DNA of 64,000 nucleotides from Waddliaceae bacterium (lineage in GTDB: Bacteria; Chlamydiota; Chlamydiia; Chlamydiales; SLFE01), in contig CAVYRW010000004.1 in NCBI GenBank assembly GCA_963771045.1, positions 32,001 to 96,000 on the forward strand, in the 5' to 3' direction. The notes under the pieces are model-generated. The model searched no databases, was not told the origin of the DNA, and saw only the letters and a program-made list of their open reading frames with translations. Of the stretch, positions 41,121 through 42,399 are shown piece by piece. Every line of letters starts with the position of its first letter. Positions within the stretch are counted from its first letter, which is position 1. The position numbers and the translations under genes were made by a program.

Positions 41121-41202
41121 CTTTTACATTGAAAAATAGTGTTATAACTGTTAATATGAGGTTTATACGAATTAGTTGAACAATTCAAGGTGTGATTTAA
41201 CT

Positions 41203-41244
41203 ATGCCAACCCTTTTTACCAATCGATGTTGTTGTTGCCTCTAG
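41203..41244 (+). promoter_or_regulatory. Putative Cys-rich leader peptide MPTLFTNRCCCCL (attenuator)
   Basis: SD-like AAGGTG (41188-41193), ATG 41203, TGT TGT TGT TGC, TAG 41242-41244; 42 nt upstream of the transporter ATG. Confidence 0.7.
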
Positions 41245-41286
41245 TGGCAGGCTCATTTAAAACAACGACAAAAGAGGTTAAATCAC

Positions 41287-42399
41287 ATGTCAAAACCAAA
41301 AACATTTTCTCCCTTTATAATTGGACTTGCGTTCTTCTCGATGTTTTTCGGATCGGGAAATCTGGTCTTCCCTTTGTTTCTCGGTCAATATGCCGGGGAT
41401 AAATGGCCGCTTGTATCACTCGGATTTATTCTATCGGGTGTGATCGGCCCTCTTTTCGGCGTTGTGGCCATGGTCGCATATCAGGGGAATACGAATAAAT
41501 TCTTTTCTACAATCGGCAAACGGAATGCTTTGATTTTTGTTTCGATTTTGATGATGGTCTGGATCCCATTCGGCGCCGCTCCAAGGTGCATACGGGTGGC
41601 TTATGAGTCTTTTGCCGCGGCTTTTCCCATCCTGCCCCTTTGGCTTTTTGGTATTTTCTATTCGGCTTTAGTCTATTTTTCCATTGTCCGCAAAAACAGA
41701 ATGATCGAAGTTCTCGGCTATTTCCTCACTCCCGCCCTTTTGATTTGCCTGGCAGTTTTATGGATCTTTGGAATGATGACAGCAGAAGCGCCGGCTCCAA
41801 CAGACCGGACTGCTCTGAATGTCTTTCACATCGGCCTCGCTCACGGTTATGAGACTATGGATCTGATCGCCTCGTTTTTCTTTTCGATCTCGATTATCAG
41901 TGTGATACAGGCAGAAAAGAAATCTGTTGTCAAGACAATGAAAAAGGCTCTTCTTTCCGGTTTTATTGGGATGTCGGTTTTGGGCCTCGTTTATGCTGCT
42001 TTGATTTTTATGGCCTCTCGAAATGCCGCCCTTCTCGCGCCCCTTGCTAAAGACCAGCTTCTTCCCTTTATCTCCATGCAGTTTTTGGGCCCCAAACTCA
42101 GCCTGATTCCTGTCGGATTGGTGTTTCTTGCCTGCATCACGACATCTGTGGCCATGCTTTCGGTATTTGCCGACTTTATCAGGGAAAACTACTTTAAGCG
42201 AGATAAGACGAACCTTTCGGTTTTATCGGGAGTCGGGCTCACCTATTTTCTTTCTTTGATTACCTTTGACGGCCTGATGGTTGTCACAACGCCTATTCTG
42301 GAAATCAGCTGCCCTCTTCTCATTCTTTTGGGGATCTACAATCTGGCCAAAAAGTTCTTTTTCAGCCCCTCTCTTGAAGAGTCAGCATTCAGTGAATGA
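41287..42399 (+). CDS. brnQ: BrnQ/LIVCS family amino acid:cation symporter
   Basis: FSMFFGSGNLVFP, PFGAAPR, GYFLTP, GYETMDLIASFFF, LACITT. Confidence 0.88.
   Translation: MSKPKTFSPFIIGLAFFSMFFGSGNLVFPLFLGQYAGDKWPLVSLGFILSGVIGPLFGVVAMVAYQGNTNKFFSTIGKRNALIFVSILMMVWIPFGAAPRCIRVAYESFAAAFPILPLWLFGIFYSALVYFSIVRKNRMIEVLGYFLTPALLICLAVLWIFGMMTAEAPAPTDRTALNVFHIGLAHGYETMDLIASFFFSISIISVIQAEKKSVVKTMKKALLSGFIGMSVLGLVYAALIFMASRNAALLAPLAKDQLLPFISMQFLGPKLSLIPVGLVFLACITTSVAMLSVFADFIRENYFKRDKTNLSVLSGVGLTYFLSLITFDGLMVVTTPILEISCPLLILLGIYNLAKKFFFSPSLEESAFSE

Follow-up and report, generated by a model that had tools for sequence, protein, structure and literature searches.

A cysteine-codon leader upstream of brnQ

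What might a run of four cysteine codons sense when it stands directly upstream of a transporter gene of a family known for leucine, isoleucine and valine, and what does the run say about the substrate? The locus lies in a 64,000-nucleotide stretch of a Waddliaceae genome (the window; its genome is G000), for which a sequence-only reading had proposed a short leader peptide with its own Shine-Dalgarno-like (SD) region. Features are on the forward strand unless stated. The open reading frame was confirmed at 41203 to 41244, where it encodes MPTLFTNRCCCCL followed by a stop codon; its Cys tract (codons 9 to 12, TGT TGT TGT TGC, 41227 to 41238) is the predicted stall site. The leader SD and spacer (41187 to 41201) form a duplex of −9.0 to −9.5 kcal/mol with the 16S tail of the genome itself. 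Downstream, 42 nt separate the leader stop from brnQ (41287 to 42399), whose 370-residue product is a BrnQ/LIVCS-family transporter (PF05525, E = 1.6e-53), as had been read. In the gene set of G000, obtained with a simple in-house gene caller, this was the sole upstream open reading frame (uORF) with four consecutive Cys codons among the 1,396 genes preceded by 50 nt or more of free sequence.

The whole regulatory element measures about 100 nt. A sigma-70-like promoter (TTGAAA-17-TAATAT with a TG extension, 41129 to 41157) matches the consensus at 9 of 12 positions, and its −10 element ends 45 nt before the leader start, a distance read from the sequence. The promoter is weak taken alone (one site found and 0.7 expected); a 10/12 promoter-like site occupies the equivalent relative place upstream of the leader in G004. 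Our scan found no U-tailed terminator between leader and brnQ, in agreement with the sequence-only reading; its two matches fell inside the coding sequence, with 0.8 expected by chance. The leader had no Rfam match (best E = 6.6), so it does not appear as a T-box or riboswitch. Divergent from the element runs a gene for a 263-residue TauE/SafE-family membrane protein (40329 to 41120, reverse strand; PF01925, E = 9.9e-45), which is syntenic within the family.

Conservation of the leader in two chlamydial families

We surveyed 400 genomes of the order (G096 was left out), the compared relatives being metagenome-assembled genomes labelled Waddliaceae or Chlamydiae. A brnQ orthologue with at least 55% identity was present in seven of them, six from the same family and one (G060) from another. 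A metagenome scan added one locus, L046, plus one duplicate of G005. The orthologue of G002 is cut by a contig start and stands outside the leader set, which comprises the seven orthologues with at least 52% identity and upstream DNA (G000, G001, G003, G004, G005, L046 and G060); the first six belong to one family.

The Cys-codon uORF is real and conserved. All seven orthologues carry a Cys-rich leader in the same frame, across two chlamydial families, which bears out the Cys-frame conservation that had been suggested as a check among orthologues of the phylum. The leaders read MPNLFTNRCCCCL in G001, MNKSCLNNRCCC in G005, MKSCLIKRCCWVCCQR in L046, VKSLPIKRCCCPVCRQP in G003 and MFIKIYCCCCTCTH in G004, and that of G060 has 28 codons with four Cys. 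Length (12 to 28 residues) and non-Cys residues drift, while the Cys codons and their frame are kept. Every leader contains at least two Cys codons in succession and a Cys somewhere at codons 11 to 14, and further Cys codons are found beyond the run. Of the 106 non-start codons in the seven leaders, 30 encode Cys, whereas Cys makes up 1.3% of the G000 proteome.

The association is specific to this brnQ type. By the rule of two adjacent Cys and at least three Cys in all within 170 nt upstream, a Cys leader was found at none of 49 other chlamydial brnQ loci (the best-scoring loci returned rather than all paralogues, after removal of ten loci that were duplicated or truncated and of one whose upstream DNA was short) and at 16 of 2,355 G000 genes. 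The G000 gene scan gave no second SD-led leader with three consecutive Cys, and none was seen before cysS, which is operonic and leaderless there, or before its pyridoxal phosphate (PLP) enzyme genes. One further member of the transporter clade described below, L056 of G045, has tRNA-Thr and tRNA-Tyr genes directly upstream and no Cys leader, so that the leader is found in seven of the eight clade members with upstream DNA. The most distant leader, that of G060, has a weak SD (−2.5 kcal/mol) and no promoter-like site nearby; scans of the G060 and G004 leaders did not find a U-tailed terminator either.

Reading frame of the TGT repeat

A TGT repeat reads as Leu (TTG) or Val (GTT) when shifted, and these are the usual BrnQ substrates; for that reason all starts whose frames cross the tract were ranked by SD strength, as pairing energy to the 16S tail of each genome. 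The best SD-led start was in the Cys frame in 7/7 leaders (−2.5 to −9.1 kcal/mol overall, and −5.0 to −9.1 in the six other than G060). If the repeat were translated in one of the shifted frames, the element would be an ordinary branched-chain attenuator of an ordinary BrnQ, and off-frame reading does give the required codons, with an ATG immediately before the repeat in the Leu frame of five of the seven leaders. Nevertheless, the Leu-frame starts lack an SD (+1.5 to −1.3 kcal/mol), their stops are unconserved and the ATG is absent from G004 and G060, while the Val frame has no start in the six family leaders. Neither frame explains the Cys codons outside the run. Both were rejected for want of an SD-led start, and we attach next to no probability to them.

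A predicted lock helix across the starts of leader and gene

All seven leaders are predicted to fold as one rod each, with z-scores of −3.05 and −2.56 in two runs for the window leader, −2.2 to −3.9 for five family leaders and −4.1 for G060. From the apex outwards, the window rod consists of a small hairpin at the leader stop codon (41236 to 41249), an inner stem, a middle stem and a terminal helix. The hairpin, a GCC/GGC pairing noticed earlier, is present in the minimum free energy (MFE) structure. The inner stem is the 10-bp helix that the sequence-only reading had drawn between the Cys tract (41227 to 41236) and 41261 to 41270, and its predicted pair probability is 0.99. In the middle stem, a pyrimidine stretch over leader codons 3 to 5 (about 41211 to 41217) pairs with the brnQ SD, according to the MFE pair table. 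The terminal helix, 12 bp long in the MFE structure, joins the leader start region (41190 to 41201, within the leader SD and spacer) to the brnQ spacer and AUG (41277 to 41288). The stretch holding brnQ SD, spacer and AUG (41271 to 41289) thus forms the 3′ arm of both the middle stem and this lock helix.

According to these models, the lock helix is the main element of the leader, and it had been overlooked in the earlier reading, which assigned the anti-SD role to CCUCU (41238 to 41242). That segment is complementary to the brnQ SD on paper, yet all five pairs had probability 0.000, whether the RNA was free or masked by a stalled ribosome, and the complementarity is not kept beyond the genus. 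We rejected it as the anti-SD. Although its Cys-tract helix is borne out, the switch as first drawn is incorrect, the anti-SD role falling to the translation-initiation region of the leader.

A helix between the ribosome-binding region of the leader and the SD-spacer-AUG of brnQ was predicted in all seven leaders, with 11 to 13 bp in six of them. A gene start region joined to the sequence 60 to 170 nt upstream by 11 or more contiguous Watson-Crick pairs was seen at six of the seven leaders, at 0/49 other brnQ loci and at 4/2,355 G000 genes; helix and Cys leader occurred together only at this gene among the 2,355. G003 is the weakest case, with six contiguous Watson-Crick pairs and 17 of 25 start-region bases paired in the MFE structure. 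The lock helix of G060 (13 bp) is rebuilt from unrelated sequence. Between G000 and G005, 3 of 11 lock pairs are changed on both sides and none is broken, as read from the pair table, and in G001 a G-U pair of the inner stem becomes A-U. RNAalifold found no consensus structure on the MAFFT alignment of the leaders, because the 5′ arm of the lock helix slides between species, so pairs were read sequence by sequence, without a formal covariation score. The covarying stems that had been suggested as a check are seen as compensatory changes in the lock helix of G000 and G005 and not as an alignment consensus.

TGT makes up 24 of the 30 leader Cys codons although the genome prefers TGC, suggesting that part of the conservation may serve pairing. 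This bias, with the Cys-rich nature of the peptides, would also suit a leader in which the codons sense no tRNA, either because the hairpin alone matters (through stability, temperature or protein binding) or because the peptide binds a metal or acts in redox chemistry. What makes that very improbable is the pattern of constraint: in the inner stem, the strand with the Cys codons never changes while its partner strand varies, SD-led starts are kept in frame, the length of 12 to 28 residues and the non-Cys residues are unconserved, and Rfam gave no match. With its own initiation site, an in-frame conserved run of codons for a single amino acid and a predicted structure over the brnQ ribosome-binding site (RBS), the leader very probably senses cysteine through the ribosome. 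The U-tailed intrinsic terminator that marks classical trp- or his-type attenuators is what it lacks.

Ribosome masking and polarity of the switch

To model a stalled ribosome, we masked an assumed footprint of −15/+12 around a Cys codon. In the six family leaders this removed the inner stem and lifted the MFE, about −29 to −32 kcal/mol without the mask, to some −13 to −20 kcal/mol; the brnQ RBS stayed closed. Its opening cost was 7.3 to 14.7 kcal/mol under the single-stall mask and 7.5 to 17.3 unmasked (18.2 to 19.1 masked and 19.0 free in G060). Masking the leader start region as well opened the brnQ site (1.1 to 6.1 kcal/mol), although this follows from the second mask itself, which deletes the 5′ arm, and tells us no more than that no alternative structure replaces it. 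Since a single stall leaves the lock closed, induction would probably need an occupied leader start region.

In the mechanism that we propose, one helix would lock the starts of both leader and gene. A ribosome would begin on the leader while the 3′ arm is still untranscribed. With plentiful Cys it would complete the 12 to 28 codons and depart, and the rod would then zip from the inner stem outwards, locking both start sites and leaving the untranslated brnQ RNA exposed to Rho or decay. When Cys is scarce, the ribosome would stall on the Cys codons and remove the inner stem, and a second ribosome or 30S subunit on the leader start, or else the stalled ribosome through its sheer size, would prevent the lock helix from closing, so that brnQ is translated. 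The queue step is an assumption, be it a queued ribosome, a 30S subunit or steric hindrance outside the folding model. Queued ribosomes are spaced by about 9 codons, and the Cys at codons 11 to 14 fits a trailing ribosome on the leader start codon.

The persistence of the closed lock under the single-stall mask in all seven leaders would also be compatible with the inverse polarity. In that case, plentiful Cys would keep a flow of ribosomes over the leader start and brnQ on, whereas a ribosome stalled at codon 9 or 10 would block fresh initiation, expose the 5′ arm and let the lock close, turning brnQ off. Cys would then be taken up for breakdown, with TauE exporting a sulfur product; the divergent TauE gene is kept in 6/6 family loci, and an importer-desulfidase pair serves Cys fermentation in Escherichia coli (PMC9040844). 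Yet in the six family leaders the rod has the Cys tract in its inner stem, so that stalling weakens the lock and finishing strengthens it; a Cys somewhere at codons 11 to 14 is present throughout, and the tested precedent is on when starved. The inverse polarity consequently seems improbable to us. We prefer the on-when-starved polarity, and hold it as probable overall, because the Cys tract strengthens the locked rod of the family leaders after the ribosome leaves and because the tested mycobacterial precedent has the same polarity.

Rho-dependent termination inside the leader, with the helix secondary, has been put forward for actinobacterial cys leaders (PMC1262725) and would agree with the missing intrinsic terminator and with the presence of rho in 5/5 genomes. 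But only 31 to 49 nt, mostly paired, lie between leader stop and brnQ AUG across the leaders, and the conserved helix is placed exactly on the RBS. We regard Rho as a most unlikely main control, although it may add polarity. A rho gene of the genome is located within the window itself (8874 to 10112, reverse strand). Returning to the translational switch as a whole, the reading that we moderately favor is an attenuator that turns the BrnQ paralogue on at low charged tRNA-Cys, the transporter probably importing Cys or a close sulfur amino acid.

A distinct BrnQ clade and its candidate substrate

The BrnQ of the window retains the conserved TM1, TM6 and TM8 motifs of the LIVCS family, passes the PF05525 cut-off and was modeled with AF2 (pLDDT 91.9) as a LeuT fold, identified by Foldseek. 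Its TIGR00796 score of 183.3 bits is below the cut-off of 243.4, a comparison made for this protein alone. A quick tree built from 57 chlamydial BrnQs places the seven proteins with Cys leaders in a clade with a stem of 0.59 (SH-aLRT 99), which also contains L056. Two positions distinguish it. Position 342 is Cys in all seven and Ser in L056, and Tyr in 49/49 other chlamydial paralogues, in E. coli BrnQ and in 141 of 150 database representatives. At position 290 the clade has Met, including the long-branched L056, versus Leu in 45 of the 49 other paralogues and 134 of the 150 representatives. Four database representatives have Cys342, and three of them, which are the top three matches, have Met290 too.

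In the model, the helix counted as TM8 contains residue 290 and that counted as TM10 contains residue 342, both being predicted substrate helices. Residues A351-T354-S355-I359 of LeuT have the same spacing as A282-T285-T286-M290, and LeuT I359 lines the side-chain pocket (PMC7035281). Position 290 would thus be the equivalent of I359, and the placement of 290 and 342 at the pocket follows from helix order and motif spacing rather than from superposition; a sequence search of the PDB gave no BrnQ structure.

Genes cysE and cysK/M were not found over cut-off in any of five genomes of 79 to 99% completeness. This need not mean auxotrophy in G000 and G001, as both have strong matches to Cys/Met PLP enzymes and a CysK/CBS-like gene of G000 falls narrowly below the cut-off. 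In contig C4 of G000, CysK/CBS-like and cystathionine-lyase-like genes and a PLP-enzyme cluster are located at 1721489-1722487, 1728867-1730036 and 1878850-1881064; the CysK/CBS-like and cystathionine-lyase-like genes have no Cys leaders, and the PLP-enzyme cluster contains internal stops or frameshifts. The divergent TauE gene had been taken as support for a sulfur theme, and this holds moderately: it is kept next to brnQ at the six family loci, but in G060, from the second family, TauE is found elsewhere in the genome.

Judging from the leader codons and the sequence of the clade, Cys is somewhat favored as a main substrate of the paralogue. The same Cys sensor could instead control a broad branched-chain or neutral carrier, either against Cys leak or as a general starvation response. 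LIVCS carriers under single-amino-acid T-boxes have been argued to be multispecific (PMC2494555), E. coli BrnQ carries Cys weakly (PMC7373191) and also Thr (PMC12003319), and ilvD was found in 0/5 genomes, so that branched-chain amino acid import is likely needed. Against this, one or more further BrnQ paralogues are encoded in every family genome, preceded in G003 and G005 by Ile/Leu/Val-rich uORFs, and a broad carrier fits poorly with the long stem and the TM8 and TM10 signature changes of the Cys clade. We judge it unlikely. Cys sensing, induction on starvation and Cys as the main substrate, taken jointly, are slightly better than an even bet; the stricter combination of a dedicated Cys importer marked by Met290 and Cys342 with a lock on both start sites that opens only when two ribosomes queue, the first stalled on Cys and the second waiting at the leader start, is doubtful enough to be offered tentatively.

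Comparison with known leaders and transporters

The closest analogues are the poly-Cys leaderless small ORFs of mycobacteria (Ms5788A and the "Cys ribulon"), which relieve SD sequestration and control translation (bioRxiv 10.1101/834739). The chlamydial leader resembles them in its consecutive Cys codons, in the lack of an intrinsic terminator, in an RNA duplex hiding the downstream SD and in the predicted release by stalled ribosomes. However, it is SD-led by sequence, and its anti-SD is the leader start region instead of the Cys codons; here the Cys tract pairs beside the SD, while SD and AUG pair with the 5′ part of the leader. Furthermore, the mycobacterial elements form a regulon of Cys-related operons, whereas the scan of G000, the one genome covered in full, found one locus, and the target is a transporter in the phylum Chlamydiota. 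By analogy, our best reading is that the leader would work like the mycobacterial attenuators, minus the leaderless start and the Cys:SD pairing. Cys attenuation, so far tested in mycobacteria, would then also exist in a form that is led by an SD and locked in another way.

Two predicted systems share some of these features. The uORFC-8-2 motif before cysS in Rhodobacterales (PMC8632094) is likewise a conserved AUG uORF with tandem Cys codons within a stem, but has a U-tailed terminator and controls cysS. Cys-rich leaders predicted for actinobacterial cys/cbs operons (PMC1262725) also place the Cys run close to the stop and have no terminator; that work reports biosynthetic targets and no conserved hairpin, and the chlamydial leader differs in both respects.

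Among transporters, the C. trachomatis BrnQ is listed as an Ile/Leu/Val carrier (PMC6123439), and the T-boxes of LIVCS genes respond to Ile, Leu, Val or Thr (PMC2494555), with the warning in the same source that amino-acid-specific control of these genes need not imply specific transport. The paralogue described here shares PF05525, the LeuT fold and the TM1/TM6/TM8 motifs with LIVCS/BrnQ carriers and departs from them in scoring below the TIGR00796 cut-off, in Tyr342Cys and Leu290Met, and in its Cys-codon control, which the accessible text of PMC6123439 and PMC2494555 does not report for LIVCS. BrnQ accounts for a small part of Cys entry in E. coli, and that bacterium is reported to be without a high-affinity assimilatory Cys importer (PMC7373191). 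The locus points to a candidate Cys importer among carriers otherwise known for Leu/Ile/Val, and residues 290 and 342 are its markers.

Amino-acid sensing by codon runs has a parallel in C. trachomatis, where the WWW motif of YtgR senses tryptophan and the annotated TrpL is described as unvalidated (PMC7755916). YtgR acts in trans via a repressor, whereas the Cys leader would be a cis element with a predicted RBS lock. If real, it would give a leader-peptide attenuator acting in cis to a phylum whose sole annotated TrpL is described there as unvalidated, and would illustrate how regulator-poor, host-dependent chlamydiae might tune nutrient uptake. As the sequence-only reading had supposed, neither a Cys leader in chlamydiae nor a Cys-controlled BrnQ was described among the literature matches listed, most subscription journals being outside their coverage.

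Leaders of other chlamydial brnQ genes

Upstream regions of other paralogues also contained uORFs with codon runs. At L040 (G003) and L041 (G005), Ile/Leu/Val-rich uORFs 130 to 260 nt upstream of the second brnQ paralogue end in LNLVVVVI and ILLLTVVTVILC, respectively. An 11/12 promoter match precedes the uORF at both loci, and a hairpin seen by eye and a second promoter-like site follow it; a scan found no U-tail or terminator after either uORF. Their codon content makes them candidate branched-chain attenuators. The counterparts in G000 and G001 are less clear. At L030 (G037), a GC hairpin that carries a long U run (by eye) lies after an Ile-rich uORF, and the uORFs upstream of brnQ at L025 (G040) and L044 (G004) end in III and VVVFAVVP. 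L021, L024 and L044 have a common short GTCGTG-hairpin motif upstream of brnQ. At L051 (G099) and L010 (G021), uORFs with Thr codons lie beside a similar small hairpin upstream of brnQ (SD of −10.2 for L051; the L010 uORF was read by eye), and from these codons they are possible Thr-sensing leaders. Control by leader peptides may be common among chlamydial brnQ genes and, if dedicated import were true of the Cys clade, leader codons (Cys, Ile/Val, Thr) would map substrate divergence across the BrnQ family.

The neighborhood of the Cys leader in the window includes an IS66-family transposase (44109 to 45506, reverse strand), a 1,201-residue open reading frame with no Pfam or NCBIfam match (36696 to 40301, forward strand) and two adjoining open reading frames (34630 to 36884, reverse strand) that by eye resemble a ClpB-type AAA+ protein broken in two by a frameshift.
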